Source: an uncultured Candidatus Peribacteria bacterium
Lineage (GTDB): Bacteria; Patescibacteriota; Gracilibacteria; Peribacterales; Peribacteraceae
DNA length: 64,000 nt
Reading direction: 5' to 3'
Assembly (NCBI GenBank): GCA_964460475.1
Contig: CAYWPP010000004.1
Location: forward strand, 22,977 to 86,976
Shown: positions 5,598-61,665 of the stretch, in pieces
Numbering within the stretch: position 1 is the first letter of the stretch
Layout of the letters: each line of letters begins with the position of its first letter
Program-made: the position numbers and the translations under genes
The notes under the pieces: generated by a model
The model's database searches: none
The model's input: the letters and a program-made list of their open reading frames with translations, nothing else
What the model was told of the DNA's origin: nothing

Positions 5598-7397
5598 TCA
5601 GGCTTTCCCCGCCCTCTTGCGTTCGTTCTCGTTGAGCAGCTTCTTGCGGAGCCGAATACTCGACGGCGTGATTTCGACGAGTTCGTCGTCGGCAACGTAC
5701 TCCAGCGCCTGTTCCAATGTCATCTTCGCGATCGGCGTCAGCGTCAGCGCTTCATCGGTACCGGAGGCACGCACGTTCGTCAGCTTCTTGTTCTTCGACG
5801 GATTCACGACGAGATCGTCGCTCTTCGCGCTCTCGCCGATGATCATGCCTTCGTACACTTTCGTCTGGGGTTCGATGAAGAGCCTGCCGCGATCCTGCAG
5901 ATTCCAGAGCGAGTACGCCATCGCCTCGCCGCCGACCATGGAAATCATCGATCCGCGGGTGCGTCCGGGAAGCGGACCTTTGAAGGGTTCGTAACGGACG
6001 AACGAATGGGTCAGAATCCCCTCCCCGCGCGTTTCGATGACGAAGTCCCCGCGCAATCCGAGCAGACCACGCGTCGGGACGATGAACTCGACACGCGTGT
6101 GTCCTTCGTTCGTGCGCATGTCGACCATCTCGCCCTTGCGGCGCGACAGCATCTCGATGATGCCTCCCGCGTAGGCTTCCGGAACGTCCACGATCACCTG
6201 TTCCATCGGTTCCATCTTCTGACCGTTCTCCTCGCGCATGATCACTTGCGGACGCGATACCTGCAGTTCGAATCCTTCGCGGCGCATCTGCTCGATGAGG
6301 ACCGACAGGTGAAGCTCGCCGCGGCCGGAAACCTTGTAGGAATCCGTGCCGGGAATGTCCTCGACTTTCAGACCGACGTTCGTCTCCTTCTCTTTCTCCA
6401 GTCGCGCCTTGATGTGGCGGGTGGTGAGGAGTTTTCCTTCGCGCCCCGCGAACGGCGAATCGTTCACGAGGAAGTTCATGGAAATCGTCGGCGGATCGAT
6501 GGTGATCGCCGGAAGCGGCTCCGCATCGGGTGCGGTCGCGATGGTTTCGCCGACGTAGATGTCGGGGATGCCCGCGAGCACGACGATGTCGCCTGCACCG
6601 GCCTTCGGAACTTCGACGCGTCTCACGCCCTGAAACGCGAAGATCTTCGTGATTTTGCCGGAACGATCTTTGCCGTCGTGCGTCTTCACGTAGACGGTTT
6701 GCCCGACGGAGACGGTTCCCTCGTACACGCGACCGATGGCGAGGCGACCGACGTAGTTGTCGTAACCCAGGCTGCTCGGCTGCATGCGGAATTCCGTGTC
6801 TTCGCGCTGCGCCGCGGCCGGCACCTTCTCCATGATGGTCTCGAAGAGCGGCGTCAGGTCGGTCGCATCGTCCTCGAGAGACTTCTTCGCGATGCCCTCA
6901 CGCGCGACGGCGAAGAGGTATGGGAAATCAAGCTGCTCATCGGTCGCGCCGAGCGAGGAGAAGAGGTCGAACACCATGTCGACGACCTCGGTCGGGCGGG
7001 CCGCGGGCTTGTCGATCTTGTTGATGACGACGATGGGCTTGAGTCCCAGTTCGAGCGACTTCTTCAGCACGAACTTCGTCTGGGGCATGGGGCCCTCCTG
7101 CGCATCGACGAGCAGGAGCACGCTGTCGATGGTCCGCAGAATACGCTCGACCTCGCTGCCGAAGTCGGCATGGCCGGGCGTATCGACGATGTTGATCTTG
7201 CAGTCCTTGTAGGTGATGGAGGCATTCTTCGCGTAGATCGTGATGCCGCGCTCTTTCTCCTGGTCGTTGCTGTCCATAACGAGCTCTTCCACTTCCTCAT
7301 GTGCGGCAAACGCACCTCCCTGCTTCAGGAGCGCGTCCACGAGCGTGGTTTTGCCGTGGTCGACGTGCGCGATGATGGCGATGTTACGGATTGTCAT
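5598..7397 (-). CDS. typA: translational GTPase TypA/BipA
   Basis: GTPase motifs AIIAHVDHGKTTL, DTPGHADF and NKID. Full-length collinear EF-G-like domains. ATG at 7397 gives MTIRNIAII; the 664-aa ORF adds a non-conserved extension. Confidence 0.95.
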   Translation of the reverse strand: MTIRNIAIIAHVDHGKTTLVDALLKQGGAFAAHEEVEELVMDSNDQEKERGITIYAKNASITYKDCKINIVDTPGHADFGSEVERILRTIDSVLLLVDAQEGPMPQTKFVLKKSLELGLKPIVVINKIDKPAARPTEVVDMVFDLFSSLGATDEQLDFPYLFAVAREGIAKKSLEDDATDLTPLFETIMEKVPAAAQREDTEFRMQPSSLGYDNYVGRLAIGRVYEGTVSVGQTVYVKTHDGKDRSGKITKIFAFQGVRRVEVPKAGAGDIVVLAGIPDIYVGETIATAPDAEPLPAITIDPPTISMNFLVNDSPFAGREGKLLTTRHIKARLEKEKETNVGLKVEDIPGTDSYKVSGRGELHLSVLIEQMRREGFELQVSRPQVIMREENGQKMEPMEQVIVDVPEAYAGGIIEMLSRRKGEMVDMRTNEGHTRVEFIVPTRGLLGLRGDFVIETRGEGILTHSFVRYEPFKGPLPGRTRGSMISMVGGEAMAYSLWNLQDRGRLFIEPQTKVYEGMIIGESAKSDDLVVNPSKNKKLTNVRASGTDEALTLTPIAKMTLEQALEYVADDELVEITPSSIRLRKKLLNENERKRAGKA

Positions 7398-8795: not shown

Positions 8796-8805
8796 TGTAT
8801 TGAGG

Positions 8806-8924
8806 AGGAGTTAGGGATGAGGGATGAGGGATTAGGGATTAGAGACTAGGGATTAGAGATGAGGAAGTATGGAGTATGGAGTAGGTGATAACGCAGCCTT
8901 CATTCGTAATTCATGATTCATACT
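8806..8924. repeat. block of degenerate 7-nt tandem repeats (GGGATTA/GAGACTA type, then GTATGGA type) between pyrD and pyrK
   Basis: Read directly from the sequence. It contains the 18-mer GGGATTAGAGACTAGGGA (8835-8852), which is identical to 9932-9949. Confidence 0.8.
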
Positions 8925-9920: not shown

Positions 9921-9972
9921 TAGGGGGGTTAGGGATTAGAGACTAGGGACTAGGAATTAGGGATTAGGGAGG
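9921..9972. repeat. left arm of hairpin cassette 1 (heptad repeats GGGATTA GAGACTA GGGACTA GGAATTA GGGATTA)
   Basis: The terminal 19-mer TAGGGGGGTTAGGGATTAG (9921-9939) matches the reverse complement of 10482-10500 at 18/19 positions. Confidence 0.85.
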
Positions 9973-10347
9973 AGAAGAGGAGGGAGAACGGACGTTGTGC
10001 TTACTCACACGTATCAGGCCGGAGAGCATTTTTCCCGTTTCATCCGTGGAACGAAGCAAGGGCCTGGCCTCTTCCTTTCCGGCAAGTTGCAATCTCAAAG
10101 CAATAAGGAGGAGCGCCTTCAGTTCGGTACATTCACCTCTCGCAATCGTGTAGACACGTGCTTTGTCACGATACGTAAATCTTCCGAAGCCTTCAGCGAT
10201 GTTCGCGACAATGCTCACCGCTGATCTTCTCATCTGCGATGTAAGTCCAAAACGCTCATCGGGTGGAAATTTTTTTTTGAGAGCATAGATTCCCTCGACT
10301 ACATTCATTGCCATACGCCACACATGGAGATCTTCAAATGAGGCCAT
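9964..10347 (-). CDS. four-helix-bundle protein (23S rRNA intervening-sequence protein family)
   Basis: Family hallmarks FEDLHVWRMAMNVV, FGLTSQMRRSAVSIVANIAEGFGR and ARGECTELK. The 3' end runs into the repeat arm. Confidence 0.9.
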   Translation of the reverse strand: MASFEDLHVWRMAMNVVEGIYALKKKFPPDERFGLTSQMRRSAVSIVANIAEGFGRFTYRDKARVYTIARGECTELKALLLIALRLQLAGKEEARPLLRSTDETGKMLSGLIRVSKHNVRSPSSSPP

Positions 10348-10353
10348 AGGGAG

Positions 10354-10359
10354 ATACTA
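10354..10359 (-). promoter_or_regulatory. -10 hexamer TAGTAT, 6 nt upstream of ATG 10347
   Basis: The minus strand reads TTGTAGTATCTCCCT-ATG. Confidence 0.4.
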
Positions 10360-10431
10360 CAAAAAATCGACCGATCCACATGCTTTCCTACGCCGGTGTA
10401 ATGCATTTCCATCCTCACAAAACCCCACATA

Positions 10432-10505
10432 CCTAGTCTCTACTCTCTCATCCCTAGTATCTAATCTCTCATCCCTAACATCTAATCCCTACCCCCCCTA
10501 AACCG
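10432..10505. repeat. right arm of hairpin cassette 1 (inverted heptad repeats)
   Basis: CCTAGTCTC...CTAATCTCTCATCCCTAACATCTAATCCCTACCCCCCCTA is the reverse-complement flavour of the left arm. Confidence 0.85.
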
Positions 10506-10589: not shown

Positions 10590-11888
10590 ATGACAGAAAT
10601 GCTCAGGAGGACATTCTTCGCCGCCATACTCACGATTGTTGCACTCTGCGTGCTGACGGCTGGAGTGCTCCGTCTTTTTACCCGTGATTCCGATGGAGGA
10701 ACATCGGCATTCGTCGGCTCTCTCCTGTTCCGTCCTGATCCGGGGAAAATGTCCGGACATGCATTCGTGGTTGCCTCTCTTGCGCGGGATGATCAATTGG
10801 ATCTTCTTTCGGAGGAGCATGGCATTGTTAAATGTCCGGCTTTTCTGCAGGAGGGATATCGATGGAGTACTCCGCAAGACATTCTTGAAGAAGGCATGCG
10901 TTTGTACGAGTTCAGCGAAAACTACACGGAAAAAAGCGGGGTATGGACAGGAAAGCGATATGGATACGGAGAGCCTTCGCAACAGACCATTTCGCGCTTT
11001 CAACCGGGAAAAACCTACTATGTGTCAGGAGCTGCCGGTTCTTCCTTCAATTGCCAGACCGAAGATAACGAATCGGGCGGCTCTTCATCGTCTCTCTCAT
11101 CACCCTCTTCATCTTCCTCTTCCTCTTCCCACTCTTCATCGACTCCTTCTTCTCCACCACCATTGTCAACGGAATGCATCATTGTGTCCGCCGCTTCCGA
11201 CGACGGGAAAATGCCTCCGCTCTTCACCGATATCCCCTGCGAGAACCAAGCGATAAGCGGTACGCAATTTTCCTTCCAATTCACAAGCGAAAACGCGGGC
11301 GGCGAAGAAGTCGCATTCCACGTCTTTCCCCTCGATCCGTTTCTTGACGTAAACAAAGACGGATATGTGACGATAGCCGATATACGATTCATCTTTTCAC
11401 GCATAAACATACCTGGTGCATACCATCCTGCCGCCGATCTCAATATCGAAGGACCTGACGGGTACATTTCGCCCATTGATGCATTGATATGGAGTAACTA
11501 TGCACGCAGCGCTCTTCCGACAGGCATGGTGCTGCATCCCTCTTCAGGCCTTCTGACATGGACACCCACCACCGAACAAGAAGGCACACACTATGTTGCC
11601 GTCAATATGTACACTCCCGCTCCGGATTATCGCAGTCCGTATTCCTCGGCGGTAATCAGGATTGCCGTCGCGGAAAATGACGGTACAACGATTCCGCCGG
11701 CATCATCGTCGTCTTCGTCTTTCTCACTCTCCTCCTTCTCCTCGTCTTTCTCCTCTTCCTCCTCAGCACCGGCTCTCTGTGGAAACGGAATGATCGAAGC
11801 GGGCGAGGAATGCGATGACGGAAACGCCGTCGACGGAGACGGCTGTTTCTCCACCTGCGTTTTCATGTTGCCTCCCACGCAACCATGA
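10590..11888 (+). CDS. secreted or anchored multidomain protein: novel Cys-bounded N-domain, Ser-rich linkers, dockerin-like and He_PIG/Ig-like segments, C-terminal Myxococcus-type Cys-rich repeat
   Basis: N-terminal signal anchor. Poly-Ser linkers. DVNKDGYVTIADIRFIF (dockerin/EF-hand-like). LPTGMVLHPSSGLLTWTPT (putative Ig). CGNGMIEAGEECDDGNAVDGDGC (Cys-rich repeat). ATGA overlap with the next gene. Confidence 0.7.
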   Translation: MTEMLRRTFFAAILTIVALCVLTAGVLRLFTRDSDGGTSAFVGSLLFRPDPGKMSGHAFVVASLARDDQLDLLSEEHGIVKCPAFLQEGYRWSTPQDILEEGMRLYEFSENYTEKSGVWTGKRYGYGEPSQQTISRFQPGKTYYVSGAAGSSFNCQTEDNESGGSSSSLSSPSSSSSSSSHSSSTPSSPPPLSTECIIVSAASDDGKMPPLFTDIPCENQAISGTQFSFQFTSENAGGEEVAFHVFPLDPFLDVNKDGYVTIADIRFIFSRINIPGAYHPAADLNIEGPDGYISPIDALIWSNYARSALPTGMVLHPSSGLLTWTPTTEQEGTHYVAVNMYTPAPDYRSPYSSAVIRIAVAENDGTTIPPASSSSSSFSLSSFSSSFSSSSSAPALCGNGMIEAGEECDDGNAVDGDGCFSTCVFMLPPTQP

Positions 11889-14800
11889 TGTCCACGCAAG
11901 TCCGCTCCCGGCTGCCTTTCATTGTCATATCGATCGCCATCGGACTGACAATCTTGCTTGCATTGAGCGTGTTCCCACAACAGGGAACGAATATTCTCGG
12001 CACCCTCACCGCTCCTCCAAATCCGCATATCGTACGCACCGTAAACAACGAAAACTTCCTGCCAAACATGGTGCTGTCACACGGAGAAAGTCGCTATATT
12101 CCCAAGAATATTCATACGTTTATCACATGTCCCGCCTCGCCGTTGCCACCCGGATACCGTTGGAGCACTCCGCAAGAATATGCGTCATCGCATCTTCTCA
12201 TGTATGAATTTTCTCCGGATGCCGATCAGGAAAAAAGCATAATGAATCAGGATTGGCCCGGTTTGCGCTACGGCTACGCGTCTTTCGAAGATACGCTCGG
12301 TTCGTTGCGGTCTGACCGCACATACTACGTATATGCATCGGAAGAAATCTTCTCTTTCCAGTGCAGCAGGCAAGTGAATGACTCGTGTACGAACATCTAT
12401 TTCGCAGATGCATTGAATAACGCTCTGCATGTGATTGGTACCGATGGAATCACGGTGCAAGACATCCCTCTGGAAATACCCGCGACGGAAAGACTCTCAG
12501 CGAGCGCCGTCGATTTGGAACGGAATACTCTGTATTGGGGCCATAAGAACACGGTATACAAATCTTCATTACTCACAGGAGAGACTGCATTCGTAGCATT
12601 ATTGCCAAACGCCGCTGTCATCAGGGAAATACATGCGGACCCGCGCCTTGATATGCTGCATATCCATGCAGCGGAAGTCGATCCGAGCGGAAGTCCAACC
12701 GGCAATGAATTGGCATACGAAATACGGAATGCATCCGCGTCTGCAACTGCACATGAAATGGGACAAGGCTTCCGCGCGGTTGATGCAAAAAACCGCATCG
12801 GTTACATGCTGACAAAAAATGCCAATAGCATGGAACTGCGGGCCGTGCACTTGGATACATTTACCGAGAACGTTCTTTACTCTTTAAGCGAGACAACCGG
12901 TCTGACCGTGCAGAGGGTCGCGGCATCGGAAGGAAAAGTGTATTGGCTCAACGTGCCGCTTATCGAGCCTTCGGCATTAAAGCCCACATTTTGGCGCATG
13001 GATAGTGAAGGAGGTGATCCGGAACAATTGTTTGCAATTCATTCCCCGAAAAATGCCATTCGTTCCTTCACGACGGACGGCATCAACGAAAAAGTGTACT
13101 GGACTCAACAACAGTCGAATATCTCTCGAGTATACCGTGCGAACATGGACGGCTCGGAAGCGGAACAAGTCTTTTCGGGACAATCGTGGATCTTCTCGGT
13201 TCAGGCGATCGACTCTTGTTGGTCTTCTGCCGTCAACCCCGTTGTGCATGCCGACGAAATATGGGCAAGATTTAGCGGAACGACGATAATGCTGGGCTCG
13301 GCATCGGATCCTTCGATGAGGAAGTATGATTTCTCGGATCTTATGGGCGGATTTGCGGTGAAAGAGTTGACCATTGATACGTTGAATCAACGCATGTTCT
13401 GGCTTTCGGAAAATGATTATCTCTTCGGAGCATATCTGGACGGTTCCGACGCCTTTGTCATAAGCCACGGCCCGTTGATTCAAGAAACATCGATCACGGT
13501 AGATCCGGTCGGCAAGCGACTGTACTCTACTCAAAGAGATACACGCATCGTAAGCAGGGCATACGATGCAACCGAATTCCGTGTCGAGTATGAAACGGGC
13601 AATGCTCTTCTTTTTGTTTCCGAACTCGTCGCTGACGGACCGGGTCGTAAGATATTTTTCATCGAAGCACTCCCTCCTCCGGGTAGGCAGGAAGCAATTG
13701 GCATTCTGGATTTGAACGGAGGAAGCAAGCGTACGCTTCCCGGATCGGCATCCAACTTCCCCCTCTCTTACTTGACCGTCGATAGTGAGGAGGAAAGGCT
13801 CTATTGGAAGAACGGAAGACTTGCAACGTATGTGGATCTTGCGACTGAATCACCGATAGAAACTCTGGATATTCCGGACGGAGCGGCCTTTGCCGTTCGT
13901 GGCGATCTTTTCCATTGGCTGGACTGGCATTATCGCCTGTGGCAGGGAAAAATCCTTGCCGGAAAGGTTCTAGAAAGAATAATGGTGCTCGACGAATCGT
14001 TTGCACGATTCCCTGCCGTGGCTATAGGCCAAGTACAACATGTGTCAAGGAGTACGGAATTATCGGTCGAACTGTCAGCTCCGGACTTCACCGTTCCGAC
14101 ACGATCCGATGAGTACAGGATAATACTGAAGAATACGGGGGACTACGTTGCGCTGAATCCGAAAATCACCTTGGAAATTCCCGATACAGTTACCCCAATC
14201 AACCCGTGTCCATCGACACAGAATGCTCAGGGGAGAACGCAGATGACTTGCGACCTATCGATCCTCGGCGCCCAGCAGGAATCAGTGATCACATTCATAA
14301 TGAATGCATCGGCCGACACGTCCTGTGATTCCCCTCTCTCTTTCCTTCTTCGTGCCGAAGCCGACAATGCCACGACTCAATCTTCGGTCGTGGAAGTTCC
14401 AATGGAATGCCAGCAACTGGAACTTGCCGTGAACGGTCCATCTCAACTGACTCACGAAACAAACATTTTGTATTCTTTCTCGCTCAGGAATAACGGACCG
14501 AAAACGACAAATGAGACTCGCGTCGTCAACTACATTCCGGATCAACTTGAATTCCTTCCGGAAGAAAGTGCTGCGGAATGCGTCGTCGGATCTTTAGCTG
14601 GAAGCAGGGTTCTGACATGCACTTATGACAGTCTTTCACCTCTTGAGCAAATCACGAGCGTGCTGCATTTTCGGGTGCGTTATCATCGCGATGTGTATCC
14701 ATGCGGGGAAATACAGAATCCTTTCGTGGCCGAAGCGGCAGATGCCCCTCCCGTGGAATCGGTGCATATCACGAATCTTCTCTGTCCGGCGGAACCTGAT

Positions 14801-18182: not shown

Positions 18183-18917
18183 CTACGTCGTCGGATCGGC
18201 ACCGAAGTAAATCTGCTGCAGCTCGCGCGATTTCTGCACGTCTTGGGGCTTACCGGTCAGCACGACCTCCCCCACGTCGAGGACGATGACGCGGTCGCAG
18301 ATCTTCGCGATGAACGGCAGATCATGTTCGATGATGAGTACGGTCTTCCCCTCCTCCTTCAGGGAGGCGATGAGATCCGCCACTTGATGCGTCATCTTCG
18401 GAGAGACGCCGGCGGTCGGTTCATCGAGGAGGAAGAGTTCCTTGCCTGCCTTCAGCGTCCGTGCGATTTCCAGAAGCCGCATCTGCCCGCCGGAGAGCGA
18501 GCCCGCCTTCTTCTTCGCATGTGCGGTGAGCCCGACCATGTCGAGCGTGCCCGCAACCGCCTCCTGCATGTTTCCAAGGAGGTCGCGCTGATCCTTTGGA
18601 AGAGATTCGAGCGCGACGAGCACGTTTTCTTCCAGTGTCATCTCGCGGAAAATGCCGAAGTTCTGGAACACGCGTCCGATGCCGAGCTGCGCGCGCTTCG
18701 CGGGTGACAGCTGCGTGATGTCATGACCGTGAAACAGAATCCTCCCGCTCTGAGGACGCAAGAAGCCCGAGAGCACATTGAAGAGCGTCGTCTTGCCCGA
18801 TCCGTTCGGACCGATGATGCCGATTACGTCGCCTTTGGGAATGTCGCAGGTGATCTCCTTGAGAATCCGGTGTTCCCCGATGGAGAAGCTGACGTGCGAG
18901 AGTGAGAGCAGAGCCAT
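18183..18917 (-). CDS. livG: ABC transporter ATP-binding protein (LivG-like)
   Basis: Walker A GPNGSGKTT, signature LSGGQMRLLEIAR, Walker B LFLLDEP. ATG 18917 gives MALLSLSHVSF. Confidence 0.9.
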   Translation of the reverse strand: MALLSLSHVSFSIGEHRILKEITCDIPKGDVIGIIGPNGSGKTTLFNVLSGFLRPQSGRILFHGHDITQLSPAKRAQLGIGRVFQNFGIFREMTLEENVLVALESLPKDQRDLLGNMQEAVAGTLDMVGLTAHAKKKAGSLSGGQMRLLEIARTLKAGKELFLLDEPTAGVSPKMTHQVADLIASLKEEGKTVLIIEHDLPFIAKICDRVIVLDVGEVVLTGKPQDVQKSRELQQIYFGADPTT

Positions 18918-18963
18918 TGGGGGAGAGAATAAACTGTTTGAAGAGAAAGAAACACCTTCAGGT

Positions 18964-19008
18964 GAAAATACGAGAATACTAAAATGCGAAAATACTAAAA
19001 AAAACATG
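18964..19008. repeat. left terminal inverted repeat of hairpin cassette 2
   Basis: GAAAATACGAGAATACTAAAATGCGAAAATACTAAAAAAAACATG. Its reverse complement occurs at 19460-19503, differing only in run length (A8 versus T7). Confidence 0.9.
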
Positions 19009-19075
19009 TGGAGGCGCTTTAAAGCACTAATGTGCAAAAGCAGACAACACACATGGCGCAGGATACCGTGACTCC

Positions 19076-19435
19076 ATGCCTGCACCGTACAAGTACGAAG
19101 CATTGGAAGAGCGCACGCTGGCGTTTGCCGCAGCCGTCCGTAAGTTTGCGAAGAATATTCCTCTCCATCACTACTCGGATGATTTGAGACAGCTACTCCG
19201 TTCCTCCGGTTCCGTGGGTGCAAACTACATCGAGGCGAATGAATCGTTGGGAAGAAAGGACTTCGTCATGCGTATACGGCTATGCAAAAAGGGGGCAAAG
19301 GAAAGCGCATACTGGCTCCGGCTTCTCGCTTTAGATGACACACATGGCAGTGCATACAGAAAACTGCGAAAGGAAGCACGCGAGCTGATGCTTATTTTTG
19401 CGGCCATTCTTCGGAAATGCGATAAGAAGAAATGA
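19076..19435 (+). CDS. four-helix-bundle protein (23S rRNA intervening-sequence protein family)
   Basis: LRSSGSVGANYIEANESLGRKDF and KGAKESAYWLRLL are family hallmarks. It lies inside the inverted-repeat cassette. Confidence 0.9.
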   Translation: MPAPYKYEALEERTLAFAAAVRKFAKNIPLHHYSDDLRQLLRSSGSVGANYIEANESLGRKDFVMRIRLCKKGAKESAYWLRLLALDDTHGSAYRKLRKEARELMLIFAAILRKCDKKK

Positions 19436-19459
19436 GTTTTCCCCTCTTTTGATGTTTCG

Positions 19460-19503
19460 CATGTTTTTTTAGTATTTTCGCATTTTAGTATTCTCGTATT
19501 TTC
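19460..19503. repeat. right terminal inverted repeat of hairpin cassette 2
   Basis: CATGTTTTTTTAGTATTTTCGCATTTTAGTATTCTCGTATTTTC. Confidence 0.9.
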
Positions 19504-19532
19504 ATCTTCGTTCTTCTCATTCCTCAAAAGAA

Positions 19533-21242
19533 CTACTTCTTTCTCGTGCAGGCCTTCATAAATGCATTAAATAACGGATGCGGTCTGTGCGGTCTGCTCT
19601 TGAATTCGGGGTGGAACTGCGACCCGAGCATGAAGGGATGATTCTTGACCTCCACGATTTCCATGATGCCGGTTCCGGGCCACTCGCCGGAGAAGACGAG
19701 TCCTTTCTCTTCCAGCTTCTTCTTGAGGGCGTTGTTGAACTCATAGCGATGGCGATGGCGCTCGGAGATCGTCTTCGTACCGTATGCCTCGTGAGCCTTC
19801 GTGCCGGGCTTCAGTTCGCACTCGTACGCACCGAGCCTGAGCGTGCCTCCTTTCGCTTTGCCTTTGTGCTGATCGGGGAGGAAGTGCACCACGTACTTCG
19901 AACGTGAACGCTCGCCGTCTTCATCGAATTCCTCGCTCGTGAGTGCCGGGTCCTTGAGCATGGCGCGTGCGAATTCAATGGCGAGAATCTGCGAACCCAG
20001 GCAGAGGCCGAGGTACGGAATCTTATGAGTACGGGCATGGCGGGCGGCTGCGATCTTTCCCTCGATACCGCGGATGCCGAATCCGCCCGGCACGAGGATG
20101 CCGTCGCAAGACCTGAGCGCATCCCATGTCTCTTTGTCGTTCTCTTCGAGCTTCTCGCTGCTCACCCAGACGATTTCGGCTTTGCGTCCGTAGTGGACGG
20201 CCGCCGACTTCAGCGCCTCGATCACGCTCAGGTACGCATCATCAAGTCCGGTGTACTTGCCGACGAGCGCAATCTTCACATCGCCATCCGCATCCTCGTA
20301 CCGACCCCTGCCCTTCTCCCACTCCGACATATCGGGCGCAATGTGGCCGAGCGCAAGCCGTGACCCGATGATCTGCGCGATGTCGTACTTCTGAAGATTG
20401 AGCGGCACATCGTAAATCGAGTTCACGGTCTGGGCGGGAATGACCGCACGACGGTCCACGTCGCAGAACCGGGCGATCTTGTCGAGGAGTTCGGCGGGAA
20501 TCTTGTAGTCCGCACGCGCGAGGATCATGTCGGGTTGCAGGCCGATGCGCCGAAGTTCACGCACGGAAAGCTGCGTCGGCTTCGTCTTCAGTTCCTTGGA
20601 ACCCTTCAGGTACGGCAGGAGCGTCAGATGCACGTGGAAGATGCGATCGTTGCCGAGATCGGAACGCATTTGCCGGATCGCCTCCAGAAACGGCTCGCCT
20701 TCGATGTCGCCGACCGTGCCACCGACCTCCACCATCATAATGTCGGCTCCGTTCTTCTCGGCTGCCTGCATGATGGAACGCTTGATGGCATCCGTGATGT
20801 GCGGCACCACCTGAATCGTCCCGCCGAGGAAGTCGCCTTTCCTCTCGCGCGCGAGCACGTCGGTGTAGATCTTTCCCGTGGTCACCGTGGAGAGTTTGCT
20901 CATCGGTTCGTCGATGAACCGTTCGTAGTGCCCCAGGTCGAGGTCGGTTTCCGCGCCGTCGTCCGTGACGAAGACTTCGCCGTGTTGGAACGGACTCATG
21001 GTACCGGGGTCGACGTTCAGGTACGGATCGAGCTTCTGCACGAACACTTTGAACCCGCAGGCCTTCATGATCGCACCGATACTGGCGGTCGCGATACCTT
21101 TTCCGAGCGAACTGCACACCCCGCCCGTCACGATGATGTAGCGCGAAGAGGCGGGAGCGCGTCCCGCGGCCGGAGTCTTCTTCTCGTTCTTCCCTTGCGG
21201 GATCTCTGGGGGTGTCCGTGTCTTCTGCTTCGGTGGAATCAT
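19533..21242 (-). CDS. pyrG: CTP synthase
   Basis: Synthetase domain (YIIVTGGVCSSLGKGI) plus glutaminase domain (GLCLGSQ, HRHRYEFN). ATG 21242 preferred; TTG 21257 possible. Confidence 0.95.
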   Translation of the reverse strand: MIPPKQKTRTPPEIPQGKNEKKTPAAGRAPASSRYIIVTGGVCSSLGKGIATASIGAIMKACGFKVFVQKLDPYLNVDPGTMSPFQHGEVFVTDDGAETDLDLGHYERFIDEPMSKLSTVTTGKIYTDVLARERKGDFLGGTIQVVPHITDAIKRSIMQAAEKNGADIMMVEVGGTVGDIEGEPFLEAIRQMRSDLGNDRIFHVHLTLLPYLKGSKELKTKPTQLSVRELRRIGLQPDMILARADYKIPAELLDKIARFCDVDRRAVIPAQTVNSIYDVPLNLQKYDIAQIIGSRLALGHIAPDMSEWEKGRGRYEDADGDVKIALVGKYTGLDDAYLSVIEALKSAAVHYGRKAEIVWVSSEKLEENDKETWDALRSCDGILVPGGFGIRGIEGKIAAARHARTHKIPYLGLCLGSQILAIEFARAMLKDPALTSEEFDEDGERSRSKYVVHFLPDQHKGKAKGGTLRLGAYECELKPGTKAHEAYGTKTISERHRHRYEFNNALKKKLEEKGLVFSGEWPGTGIMEIVEVKNHPFMLGSQFHPEFKSRPHRPHPLFNAFMKACTRKK

Positions 21243-21538
21243 AGAAAACCTGGGCAATCCTTCCGGGGGAGTGGTTCGACCTCGTTCACCACAAGAGGAG
21301 CCCGCCGAGAATTATACGGAGGAAAACGCCAAAATCAAGTTGAAACAGGTGTTGCGCCGGGCGGCGAATTTCCTATGATGGAACCACAAGAAAGAACATG
21401 ATGTTCCTTCTTGTACAGGGTCTCTTCGTTCTAGCACCACCGGGTATCATCCATTCATTGGAATCACCAGGTGCTAGGCGTAAGAGACTCTCTTTTTGCG
21501 TGTTGCGAGAGAGTCTCCACGCACCGGCATATCCGTCA

Positions 21539-26594: not shown

Positions 26595-26848
26595 GAGAGA
26601 AAAATGCTAAAATGCTAGAGCACTAAAATGCTAGAGCACTAAAATACTAGAGAAAGGGGGAAAGAACGAAAGGCAGAAAGGGCGAAAGAAGCTTCTCAAT
26701 ATGGGAAAAGAATGAAAAACAAAAAAATATTTGTTTCTTCTCTCATATAGCTGTTTCGCATCTTTTTTCGTCTATCTCGGACTTTCGAACGTCTTTTTAG
26801 TATTCTAGTACTTTAGTATTTTAGTATTTTTTACCTCTAGCATTCTCC
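26595..26848. repeat. ORF-less hairpin cassette of the AATACTA/GCTAGAG repeat family
   Basis: The left arm has AAAATGCTAAAATGCTAGAGCACTAAAATGCTAGAGCACTAAAATACTAGAG. The right arm has TTTTTAGTATTCTAGTACTTTAGTATTTTAGTATTTTTTACCTCTAGCATTCTC, an imperfect inverse of the left arm. Confidence 0.7.
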
Positions 26849-39025: not shown

Positions 39026-39826
39026 GTGCCCCTCTCCTACTCCCAGCTGCAGACGTACAGGCGCTGCCCGCGGCAGTATGAGTATGCATACGTGAAGAAG
39101 TTGCCTGCGCCGCTGTCGGCGGGTGAGAGCTTCGGCTCCAGCATTCATAACACGCTCAAGAAGTGGGGCGAATTAGAATTGATGGAGAGTTCCGCGTTAC
39201 GGGTTGATTCCACAAATCAACTGGCATTGTTTATTGAAAAAAACGATCAACCCGTAACGCGCAACGCGCTGACCGAAGAAACATTATTACGCCTCTGGCA
39301 CCAATCGTTCATTGTCGAAGGATATGCGACGCGCGTGGAGGCGGATTTCCAGAGGAGCATCGGCGAGAACATCCTGCGCGATTTCTTCGCCTGGTGGAGC
39401 ACCGAACCGCACGAGGTCGTCGTGATCGAGAAGGGATTCACCTGCACGCTCGAAGGCGGCGAAACGCTGAGCGGAAGATTCGACCGCGTCGAGAGGACGG
39501 AACACGGCCTTCGCATCATCGACTTCAAGACCGGCGATCCCCGCCCGCAGGAGAGCGTGGATGCGGACCTGCAGCTCTCCATCTACGCGCTCGCCGCGCG
39601 GGATCTCTGGGAAGAGCCCGTGGAAGAACTGGTGTTTCTGTTTCTGAATCGTGACGGAATCACGGCTCTCTCAACCACGCGCAACGCATCGCAACTGCAT
39701 GATGCGGCAAAGAGCATTCGCGTTCTTGCCGAGAGAATCACGGAAAAGGACTTCCGGCCGACACCGGCCCTTGAGAAGTGCAGACGCTGTCCGTACAGAC
39801 GCGTGTGTGATGTGGCAGCTGTGTAA
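39026..39826 (+). CDS. PD-(D/E)xK nuclease, Cas4/AddB-like with a Cys cluster
   Basis: N-terminal SYSQLQTYRRCPRQY. Core FDRVE...LRIIDFKTG and QLSIYALA. C-terminal CRRCPYRRVC, completing the 4-Cys arrangement typical of Cas4-like nucleases. Confidence 0.8.
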   Translation: MPLSYSQLQTYRRCPRQYEYAYVKKLPAPLSAGESFGSSIHNTLKKWGELELMESSALRVDSTNQLALFIEKNDQPVTRNALTEETLLRLWHQSFIVEGYATRVEADFQRSIGENILRDFFAWWSTEPHEVVVIEKGFTCTLEGGETLSGRFDRVERTEHGLRIIDFKTGDPRPQESVDADLQLSIYALAARDLWEEPVEELVFLFLNRDGITALSTTRNASQLHDAAKSIRVLAERITEKDFRPTPALEKCRRCPYRRVCDVAAV

Positions 39827-39897
39827 AAATAAAATAAAAAATAAGAAATAAGAAAATAAAAAACGTTTCTTATTTCTTATTTCTAATTTTTTATTTC
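39827..39897. terminator. AT-rich palindrome, likely a bidirectional terminator between convergent genes
   Basis: Perfect 14-bp stem TAAGAAATAAGAAA (39842-39855) pairs with TTTCTTATTTCTTA (39866-39879), with a 10-nt loop. A-rich upstream and T-rich downstream. Confidence 0.7.
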
Positions 39898-39900
39898 TCT

Positions 39901-44114: not shown

Positions 44115-44735
44115 ATGATGAAGAACGTCCCTGCTCTGTTCCTCGCATCGGCTTTGCTCGCTGCCTGCGGATTCCTCGGAGCCGAGCCCGCCGTGAATCC
44201 CGATCCGAACCACACGCATGCCGATTTCCTCATGGTGATCGAGGGGCGCATGATCGACTTCTCGGACGAGAAGTACATGTCCGAAGCGGTCACGGACGAA
44301 ACGGAACCGCATGAGCACGAAGAGGGATACCTGCATCAGTACCTCCATCTGCATGACGGCGTCGGTCATGTCATTCACCGACATAAACCGGGGCTGACGA
44401 TCGGAGAATTTTTCGACTCTATCGGCGTCACCATGACGGAGAACTGCGTCACGCTCGATAACGGAGCCTCCTACTGCAACGATGCCGAGAACCGATGGCG
44501 GATGCTCGTGAACGGAGAGGAGAGAGCGCTCGATCCCGCGTATACCTTCGAGGATCTGGACCGGCTGCTCTTCGTCTACGGAGCCGATGACGCAACGCTG
44601 ACACGACTGACGGAAGAAGTGTCCGATGATGCGTGTCTCTTCTCCCGCACCTGTCCAGAACGAGGCGATCCTCCCGCGGAAAACTGCGTGGCCGATCCGT
44701 CGGTACCGTGCGTTGTTCCGCCGGAGGAACTGTAG
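44115..44735 (+). CDS. His-rich lipoprotein, function unknown
   Basis: Lipobox LLAACG. HTHADF, HEHEEGYLHQYLHLHDGVGHVIHRH. Confidence 0.6.
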   Translation: MMKNVPALFLASALLAACGFLGAEPAVNPDPNHTHADFLMVIEGRMIDFSDEKYMSEAVTDETEPHEHEEGYLHQYLHLHDGVGHVIHRHKPGLTIGEFFDSIGVTMTENCVTLDNGASYCNDAENRWRMLVNGEERALDPAYTFEDLDRLLFVYGADDATLTRLTEEVSDDACLFSRTCPERGDPPAENCVADPSVPCVVPPEEL

Positions 44736-44882
44736 AAAATACTAAAATACTAGAATACTATGCGAAAGAAACGCATAAACATGCGAAAGAACGAGAGATG
44801 AAACATGTTTATTGCTTTTCTCCCTTCGTTGTTTTGCATCTTTTTTTAGTATTTTAGTATTTTAGTATTCTAGTATTTTTAC
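44735..44882. repeat. ORF-less hairpin cassette of the AATACTA/TGCGAAA family
   Basis: The arms are GAAAATACTAAAATACTAGAATACTATGCGAAAG... and ...GCATCTTTTTTTAGTATTTTAGTATTTTAGTATTCTAGTATTTTTAC. They are centred on the palindrome AAACATGTTT (44801-44810). Confidence 0.8.
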
Positions 44883-61493: not shown

Positions 61494-61550
61494 GACCGTA
61501 GCTTATCGCTATAAACAGAATTCTTCGAGGTGTTCCTTCTTTGGTGACGG

Positions 61551-61663
61551 GTGTGAGGGTTGCGAGTTTGAGGGTTACGGGTTACGGGTTACGTGCTTAC
61601 TCACAACTCGTCAACTCGCTAACTCGCTAACTCGTCAACTCGCCAACCCGCCAACCCGCTAAC
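61551..61663. repeat. decayed hairpin cassette (GGGTTAC heptads, CGCTAACT octads) between thyA and folA
   Basis: Arms built of short tandem repeats flank GTGCTTACTCACA (61593-61605), which is identical to 9997-10009 inside the four-helix gene of cassette 1. Confidence 0.65.
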
Positions 61664-61665
61664 AA

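Follow-up and report, generated by a model that had tools for sequence, protein, structure and literature searches.

What is a gene of the '23S IVS protein' family (PF05635; IVS, intervening sequence) doing between long inverted repeats in the spacer separating pyrG from a livG-type gene? The locus, here called cassette 1, lies in a 64-kb stretch of contig CAYWPP010000004.1 from an uncultured Candidatus Peribacteria bacterium, and 'the window' below means that whole stretch. Our answer is that cassette 1 belongs to a widespread class of very small cassettes, in each of which a PF05635 gene sits between two inverted arrays of about five short tandem units. The units are of 7 nucleotides (nt) in the class at large and of 8 nt in this Peribacteria lineage. 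The class is spread over many phyla, is intergenic and often inside operons in either orientation, and is sporadic among close relatives; arrays devoid of an open reading frame (ORF) and deletion derivatives accompany it. Gene and arrays move together, and the arrays retain a unit core typical of the protein subfamily, without the co-variation expected of a stem. We favour, on balance, the explanation that the gene and its inverted arrays form a mobile module in which the arrays are predicted cis sites.

Cassette 1 is made up of the following parts:

18960-19008: left arm, consisting of four 8-nt units (GAAAATAC GAGAATAC TAAAATGC GAAAATAC), an A-rich terminal unit (TAAAAAAAA) and CATG
19009-19075, plus strand: inner leader of 67 nt, from left arm to start codon
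19076-19435, plus strand: PF05635/TIGR02436 four-helix-bundle gene, 119 residues, assigned by profile matches
19436-19459, plus strand: spacer of 24 nt, from stop codon to right arm
19460-19507: right arm, reverse-complementary to the left arm except that T7 replaces A8

Read directly, the left arm runs inwards as ...GAAAATACGAGAATACTAAAATGCGAAAATACT-A8-CATG (also given as ...AAAATACT-A8-CATG), its last base being 19008, and the right arm opens at 19460 with CATG-T7-AGTATTTTCGCATTTTAGTATTCTCGTATTTTC... (also given as CATG-T7-AGTATTTT...). A repeat search, which pairs 18960-19003 with 19464-19507 at 98% complementarity across 44 nt, agrees with this reading and with the initial annotation, made from the sequence alone, which had described arms that are mutually reverse-complementary apart from A8 versus T7 and that carry CATG at their inner ends. 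That annotation had not remarked that each arm is a series of five tandem 8-nt units (GAAAATAC GAGAATAC TAAAATGC GAAAATAC TAAAAAAA), nor that the ORF is antisense to its flanking genes, nor that ORF-less inverted pairs lie at 26601-26833 and 44734-44881. Each strand of the window has exactly one copy of a 40-nt arm core, and none appeared in 100 shuffles. Counted with the CATG ends and a single bulged A, the arms can form a duplex of 48 bp, whose energy is -64 kcal/mol in RNA of the plus strand and -60 kcal/mol in that of the minus strand. Folding of the surrounding 591-nt region, a check that the initial annotation had proposed, pairs the arms on either strand (z = -7.1 and -6.5).

The interior of the cassette holds a single ORF, whose product matches PF05635 with 38.0 bits (cut-off 33.8) and TIGR02436 with 55.9 bits (cut-off 24), as expected from the earlier description of a 119-residue four-helix-bundle protein as sole cargo; no transposase is encoded in the cassette. 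The R-x3-S-x3-N-x2-E motif described for PF05635 (PMC3936711) is present in helix 2 as RSSGSVGANYIE, and its columns are invariant in an alignment of 27 relatives. The protein is basic, with 25 lysines and arginines against 14 acidic residues. Its only sequence relative in the PDB is 2RLD (E = 1.4e-9), an entry which, like 2GSC, contains five chains; the latter, XCC0516 of Xanthomonas campestris, crystallised as a homopentamer (PMC4990558). Homology to 2RLD thus supports the prediction of a pentameric four-helix bundle. Scanning of 18800-19700 revealed no site resembling an intrinsic terminator. An exact look-up with the protein matched 0 contigs, and a contig pattern scan with AGTATTYTNNNAYTTTAGTATTYT returned AT-rich noise only, its match L021 being unrelated.

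The generality of the arrangement was assessed in 80 metagenome loci encoding close relatives (49-62% identity), fetched via alignment. In most of them, inverted arrays of 7-nt units enclose the gene. On the upstream side the arm is typically AAATTCG AAATCCG AATATCG AAATTCG AAACAAAT and ends 5-10 nt ahead of the ATG, so that the 67-nt leader of cassette 1, which could house a promoter of its own for the gene, is atypical; the downstream arm is the reverse complement and starts 20-40 nt past the stop codon. Of 67 close relatives, 44 had a bracketing inverted repeat with a score of 14 or more, compared with 0 of 113 displaced controls on the same contigs and 0 of 67 shuffles. Arrays of period 7 are 15-fold denser beside the ORFs (3.26 per kb) than elsewhere (0.213 per kb), and the number of units per arm peaks sharply at five, in 40/71 5' arms and 44/71 3' arms. 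None of the 80 loci lies in ribosomal RNA (rRNA). An Rfam search of the whole 64 kb likewise finds a tRNA only and no rRNA; the initial annotation was therefore right to place cassette 1 outside rRNA, but that location, which it had thought noteworthy, is the usual one among close relatives.

Beyond the close relatives, flanking 7-nt arrays accompany 9 of the 9 plasmid-borne distant members examined, from Nostoc, Anabaena, Planktothrix, Pseudanabaena, Treponema and Chondrinema. Further array-bracketed cases are the loci L047 and L137, a second cassette in L082, the cassette-2 relatives L149 and L150, and cassette 2 of the window itself (see below). The layout around PF05635 genes recurs in at least seven phyla. 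The units and settings are as follows, MAG standing for metagenome-assembled genome:

Nostoc punctiforme PCC 73102 and N. commune: unit GTCGGAG; in N. punctiforme beside TnsA and XisH/XisI genes
N. flagelliforme: unit GCAATTC
Anabaena cylindrica PCC 7122 (L140, pANACY.01) and Nostoc sp. TCL26-01 (L145): unit GTAAAAA; antisense between cas2 and cas1
Planktothrix: units CCCAATC and GTAAATC
Treponema saccharophilum: unit GAAAGNG, dozens of units
Chondrinema: unit CAGTNAN; between genes of a resistance-nodulation-division (RND) pump
Phycisphaerales MAG (L149): units GGGATCA/GGCATCC; sense orientation between groES and groEL
Rhizobiaceae MAG (L150, 640-1150): (ATGGTGA)4 and (TCACCAT)4-5; between nuoC and nuoD

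Published data extend the list. XCC0516 has a GGGAATC-type array of four units overlapping its start codon, according to the supplement of Rehm et al. 2015, and is one of 186 sites of such arrays in X. campestris (Xcc); the same authors list GGGAATC arrays at groES/groEL in Xanthomonas too (PMC4692102).

Two of these loci have features of their own. On plasmid pTS1 of T. saccharophilum (L142, 1160-1930), dozens of GAAAGNG units lie upstream of the PF05635 gene and complementary arrays occur on both sides of the ORF, which shows how greatly an arm can expand. The Rhizobiaceae cassette is minimal: (ATGGTGA)4 overlaps both the TGA stop codon of nuoC and the ATG of the cassette gene, and (TCACCAT)4-5 follows the stop, so that a TGA-ATG stop-start pair is present in every unit. 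The idea to which the (TGAATGG)4 reading of this array gives rise, that period 7 provides stops and starts in three frames as a translational insulator, was rejected as a general explanation because CGAAATN and GGGAATC arrays carry no stop codons.

Are the arms, then, maintained as a base-paired stem or as a repeated sequence motif? In minimum-free-energy folds the arms of relatives are paired in 57/73 sense and 61/73 antisense RNAs. Yet across the family Watson-Crick pairs make up only 77% of aligned arm positions. Among the mismatches, a bias between G-U and A-C was sought as a pointer to selection at the RNA or DNA level, or to the transcribed strand, and was discarded as an indicator since there is none (120 versus 114), and thus no RNA-strand signature. 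An arm complements its own partner only slightly better than it does an arm from a different locus (median score 20 versus 17, p = 2.5e-4), and co-variation of the variable unit positions between the two arms was not seen. Even at 50-60% protein identity, however, the arms retain the AA..C. unit core and the AAACAAAT terminal unit, and conservation of the core without co-variation indicates a constraint on the sequence of each array. Two arrays of a conserved short tandem repeat, inverted relative to each other, are thus a better description of the arms, and cassette 1 stands at the extreme, near-perfectly paired end of their distribution. The suggestion in the initial annotation of a mobile element and/or an RNase III site accordingly stands with respect to mobility, whereas a base-paired stem maintained family-wide does not emerge. 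Unit type shifts with protein subfamily: A-rich CNAAAT units go with the subfamily of cassette 1, and G-rich GGGAWTN units with XCC0516-like proteins in three phyla (the window, Xanthomonas and Phycisphaerales). Two cassettes with differing units coexist on one contig both in L082, whose second cassette (6571-7036) has a unit type of its own, and in the window.

The window contains the following additional cassette and arrays:

9924-10492, minus strand: cassette 2, directly upstream of pyrD; ORF 9964-10347 (minus strand), 127 residues, PF05635 118.7 bits
8804-8860: solo array of the cassette-2 unit type (GGGATGA/GGGATTA/GAGACTA), between pyrD and pyrK
26601-26833: element C, two inverted AAAATGCT/AAAATACT arrays without an ORF (26601-26648 and 26799-26830) in a divergent intergenic region
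44734-44881: element B, an ORF-less palindrome of AAAATACT units, with arrays at 44736-44759 and 44848-44879 about 88 nt apart, between convergent genes

The six ends of cassette 1 (element A), B and C can all be aligned, including some 30 nt interior to the arrays with the motif GTTTCGCAT(G/C)T-run, and the three elements hence constitute one repeat family; the spacer at 19436-19459 is homologous to the inner right ends of B and C (GTTTCGCAT...). The notion that the arms act as outward promoters suits element C and the livG side of cassette 1 but not element B or the pyrG side, and was rejected. Cassette 2 belongs elsewhere in the family. Its arms are inverted arrays of GGGATTA/GAGACTA 7-nt units (9924-9974 and 10425-10492), and its protein, also basic, matches XCC0516 (2GSC) with E = 3e-20 and shows no similarity to the cassette-1 protein in BLASTP. 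The bAvd profile PF22296 matches it weakly (25.8 bits, under its cut-off) and does not match the cassette-1 protein. With the solo array on its other side, pyrD is therefore flanked by two arrays in direct orientation. No PF05635 ORF beyond those of the two cassettes was found in the window.

Two palindromes of other kinds are also visible there. The first, at 39823-39899, is AT-rich, with 7-nt AATAAGA/AAATAAG units, a loop of 3-10 nt and no cognate gene in view; the second, at 61545-61665, is an imperfect hairpin with a short loop, formed by 8-nt arrays of GGGTTACG and CAACTCGC types with no PF05635 gene nearby.

As the initial annotation had stated, cassette 1 is situated between a pyrG stop and a livG start on the same strand, and its ORF is antisense to both neighbours because both are on the minus strand:

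19533-21257, minus strand: pyrG (CTP synthase), upstream host gene, stop codon 25 nt from right arm
18183-18917, minus strand: livG-type ABC ATPase, downstream host gene, start codon 42 nt from left arm

Relatives of this pyrG assign the organism to Candidatus Peribacteria/Peribacteraceae, within the candidate phyla radiation (CPR). Comparison of orthologous sites, again a step that had been proposed with the initial annotation, shows the pyr region to be polymorphic:

L052 (pyrG 81% identical): pyrG-livG gap of 38 nt, an empty site without cassette
L047 (pyrG 84%): antisense PF05635 gene between pyrG and pyrD, its arms being AGAGTAAG-type 8-nt arrays
L137 (pyrG 79%): a third cassette, 35% identical to cassette 1, antisense in the pyrD-pyrK spacer, with GAAAATT arrays
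L136 and L139 (pyrG 80%): cassette absent
L049 (pyrG 84%): GC-rich pyrG-pyrD gap of 430 nt (11678-12107), containing neither a called PF05635 gene nor an inverted repeat

At L047 the encoded protein shares 57% identity with that of cassette 2 and is unrelated to that of cassette 1. Its cassette (11667-12229) and cassette 2 both lie upstream of pyrD in opposite orientations and have differing arm units, 8-nt AGAGTAAG and 7-nt GGGATTA respectively. Recombination between inverted arms, by inverting the cassette, would explain the orientations, and the units suggest fast turnover of arms.

Elsewhere, cassettes with 80-89% DNA identity are found in flanks that are dissimilar at both nucleotide and translated levels (L097/L130, L058/L060 and L060/L095). 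Conversely, at the syntenic site of L066 and L074 the cassette is 97.7% identical and its flanks 73-75%, while the corresponding figures for L090 and L102 are 94.6% and 73.6%, with identity climbing at the outer end of the 5' arm; both of these pairs suggest recent exchange or site-specific re-insertion. Taken together, the empty pyrG-livG site, the cassettes in other pyr spacers and the similar cassettes in unrelated flanks support the view, which the initial annotation had put forward as a possibility, that the cassette behaves as a mobile element. Target-site duplications are not evident in the junction alignments of L090/L102 and L066/L074, nor is any direct repeat evident outside the arms of cassette 1; the arm boundaries are fuzzy. 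ORF-less palindromic arrays share contigs with the cassettes of relatives. An internal-deletion derivative at L115 (3328-3496) retains both arms and the first codons and has lost most of the ORF. Among the 12 loci with both neighbours callable, eight have the cassette in sense orientation between co-directional genes.

How might such a module work? In the explanation that we favour, the gene would be flanked by its own sites and the ORF-less arrays elsewhere would be further sites. The arrays would act in cis as sequence-specific sites, and their most likely ligand would be the basic, pentameric product of the cassette gene, at roughly one unit per subunit. We advance this particular step with less than even confidence; it is proposed because the protein is basic, the family is pentameric and includes the nucleic acid-binding protein Avd, and the modal number of five units fits one per subunit. 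Any transcript crossing a cassette would fold the inverted arrays into a long hairpin. A near-perfect duplex of 48 bp is a textbook substrate of RNase III, and cleavage of the stem of cassette 1 is plausible: the enzyme would cut pyrG-to-livG read-through RNA there, which would split the two messages and free an antisense RNA of the cassette. A broader proposal, likewise held with less than even confidence, is that PF05635 pentamers are the missing cognate partners of bacterial 7-nt arrays at large (the cyanobacterial short tandemly repeated repetitive (STRR) sequences, GGGAATC, TAACTGA and so on), each subfamily having its own unit read at about one unit per subunit. Across phyla the gene between inverted arrays would then be accompanied by ORF-less arrays as dispersed sites affecting their neighbours, and 23S IVSs would be insertions of the module into rRNA helices.

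Several observations weigh against the preferred explanation. We infer every one of its mechanistic steps, namely binding, cleavage and transposition. Array length runs from four units to the dozens in Treponema, so the ratio of five units to one pentamer does not hold everywhere. Among members of the close subfamily, protein similarity is barely reflected in the unit variant (CGAA, CTAA or ACAA), identity being 0.65 within types and 0.61 between them, and the correlation of protein with unit is weak there, its support coming from comparisons between subfamilies. Moreover, gene and arms are co-inherited, and this alone could generate a correlation between subfamily and unit. Cassette 1 itself is unusual on three counts, its 8-nt units, its 67-nt leader and its antisense position, and the sigma-70 scan of 18800-19700 found no promoter at all, including none for its ORF. 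Finally, Peribacteria have palindromic arrays of other unit types, such as those at 39823-39899 and 61545-61665, with no cognate gene in view.

Other explanations must be set against this background. The arms might serve purely as RNA, pairing so that RNase III excises the cassette from the host transcript and insertions in operons or rRNA become tolerable, with the periodicity incidental. The 48-bp duplex of cassette 1, the paired arms in most folds on both strands and the frequent positions within operons (groES|groEL, nuoC|nuoD, cas2|cas1 and RND pump genes) would all fit, but the near equality of cognate and non-cognate complementarity, the 77% Watson-Crick pairing with G-U no more frequent than A-C, and variable unit positions that fail to co-vary do not. 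Such an insulator would also leave unexplained the 7-nt period, the mode of five units, a unit core kept at 50-60% protein identity, solo arrays and arrays abutting start codons, and we consider it unlikely. Somewhat less likely still is a DNA transposon resembling a miniature inverted-repeat transposable element (MITE), its arms being terminal inverted repeats (TIRs) with subterminal sites for a transposase encoded elsewhere, its four-helix-bundle gene a passenger and elements B and C empty copies. It would predict tandem subterminal repeats in inverted arms, copies that lack the ORF or part of the interior, a cassette recurring in unrelated flanks, and presence/absence polymorphism, all of which are seen. 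Against this, no target-site duplication is evident at the window, L090/L102 or L066/L074 junctions and no linked transposase at roughly 100 loci. The arm core is conserved in many phyla in which only the four-helix-bundle gene is constant, so that a trans-acting transposase would need to be equally widespread, and arrays are also found alone and just ahead of ordinary start codons, as in Beggiatoaceae (PMC4679880) and at 8804-8860.

The positions of the arrays relative to start codons prompt a different reading, in which the 5' array is an unstructured leader or an operator setting translation of the adjacent ORF through a host factor (such as S1, Csp or CsrA), the 3' array is a by-product and the gene has no particular tie to the repeats. 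It gains from 5' arrays that stop 5-10 nt before the ATG or overlap it, from the TAACTGA arrays 1 nt upstream of start codons in Beggiatoaceae (PMC4679880) and from the effect of 7-nt repeats on recF and recO expression in Nostoc (bioRxiv 2022.06.06.494920). Since it accounts neither for the 15-fold higher array density around PF05635 genes, nor for the obligatory second, inverted array past the stop codon, nor for the joint movement of gene and arrays, we give it only a slim chance. Chance itself, whereby the intergenic regions of Peribacteria are simply rich in palindromic arrays such as terminators and the gene merely happens to lie between two, might be entertained in view of the arrays of other unit types that the window and relatives contain apart from any four-helix-bundle gene. 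It is strongly disfavoured by the displaced controls (0/113) and the array density, and further by the recurrence of the layout around PF05635 genes in at least seven phyla, the 40-nt exact match common to both arms and the lack of any terminator-like site in the scanned region; we regard it as scarcely credible.

The association of PF05635 genes with short tandem arrays is probably an unreported regularity. Neither PF05635 nor S23p is mentioned in the papers on 7-nt repeats (PMC4692102, PMC4679880 and bioRxiv 2022.06.06.494920), and a literature search, itself incomplete, found no paper containing the arm sequences or naming both 7-nt repeats and PF05635/S23p. It links three puzzles: the role of the '23S IVS protein' or Avd-like family outside diversity-generating retroelements (DGRs), the presence of an ORF between inverted repeats in 23S IVSs, and the purpose and partner of the 7-nt repeats of cyanobacteria, xanthomonads, Beggiatoaceae and Bacteroidota. 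Since gene and array are regularly co-located, the three become testable together in culturable models, such as XCC0516 of X. campestris, NPUN_RS34315 of N. punctiforme and the cas2|cas1 insert of A. cylindrica PCC 7122; the last, with that of Nostoc sp. TCL26-01, also offers a culturable case for RNA processing inside an operon. If the arrays are cis sites, the PF05635 family would be tied to 7-nt repeats that lack an assigned partner. More practically, the layout provides a simple annotation rule by which cassettes and their ORF-less derivatives can be recognised within operons.

Among known systems, the arrays resemble the 7-nt repeats just mentioned (cyanobacterial STRR, Xanthomonas GGGAATC, Nostoc GGGGAYT and Beggiatoaceae TAACTGA), which are intergenic, commonly of about four units and often abut start codons (PMC4692102, PMC4679880, bioRxiv 2022.06.06.494920). 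Those of Beggiatoaceae stop 1 nt short of start codons (PMC4679880), those of Nostoc affect expression of recF and recO, with a binding partner 'yet to be identified' (bioRxiv 2022.06.06.494920), and convergent inverted pairs are frequent, numbering 70-75 in Xcc and Xac (PMC4692102). Here, by contrast, the arrays bracket a PF05635 gene and the unit of cassette 1 has 8 nt; given that cassette 2 and nearly all relatives have 7-nt units, cassette 1 can be considered a period variant of the heptamer class. PF05635 genes wedged in cas operons, for example cmr3|cmr2, have led to the proposal of a CRISPR-related role (Zhang et al. 2013, PMC3936711). The cas2|cas1 inserts in Anabaena and Nostoc are similar, although flanking arrays were not described in that work and the neighbours in the window are housekeeping genes.

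The 23S IVSs of Leptospira and Coxiella burnetii share with cassette 1 a length of about 450-550 nt, complementary termini forming a long stem and a lone PF05635 ORF of about 120 codons in the loop. That of C. burnetii, 428-444 nt long and cleaved by RNase III in a stem of 28 bp (PMC4990558), bears out the likeness of architecture drawn in the initial annotation, and the sporadic, horizontal distribution of IVSs with an S23p/PF05635 ORF (PMC4990558) is also that of cassette 1. Cassette 1 differs in lying outside rRNA, in being antisense to the host transcript and in having arms composed of tandem 8-nt units. It may work like a 23S IVS and yet falls outside the class as defined by location; the likeness is one of layout, an ORF between complementary arms.

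The Avd protein of DGRs binds nucleic acid and reverse transcriptase. The cassette-1 protein has the same four-helix-bundle fold family and basic character, with a pentamer predicted here from homology, and the Avd family is homologous to PF05635 proteins (PMC10053308). Neither a reverse transcriptase nor template or variable repeats adjoin the cassette-1 gene, its neighbours being pyrG and livG, and it is therefore not a DGR Avd. Like MITEs and other TIR-bounded transposons, cassette 1 is bounded by terminal inverted repeats and exists in several copies, namely elements A, B and C.

A parallel may also be drawn with repetitive extragenic palindromic (REP) sequences and their associated tyrosine transposases (RAYTs), in which short palindromic repeats are dispersed between genes and a gene is flanked by inverted copies of that repeat. 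The present cassettes are unlike REP/RAYT in that the gene is a small four-helix-bundle one in which only PF05635 is detected, with no HUH/Y1 transposase domain, that the repeats are tandem unit arrays rather than single REP hairpins, and that a genome often has several paralogous cassettes, each with its own unit type. They are like it in the essential arrangement of a gene lying between inverted repeats which are also dispersed, as seen in elements A, B and C of the window, in the solo array at 8804-8860 and in the arrays of Xcc.

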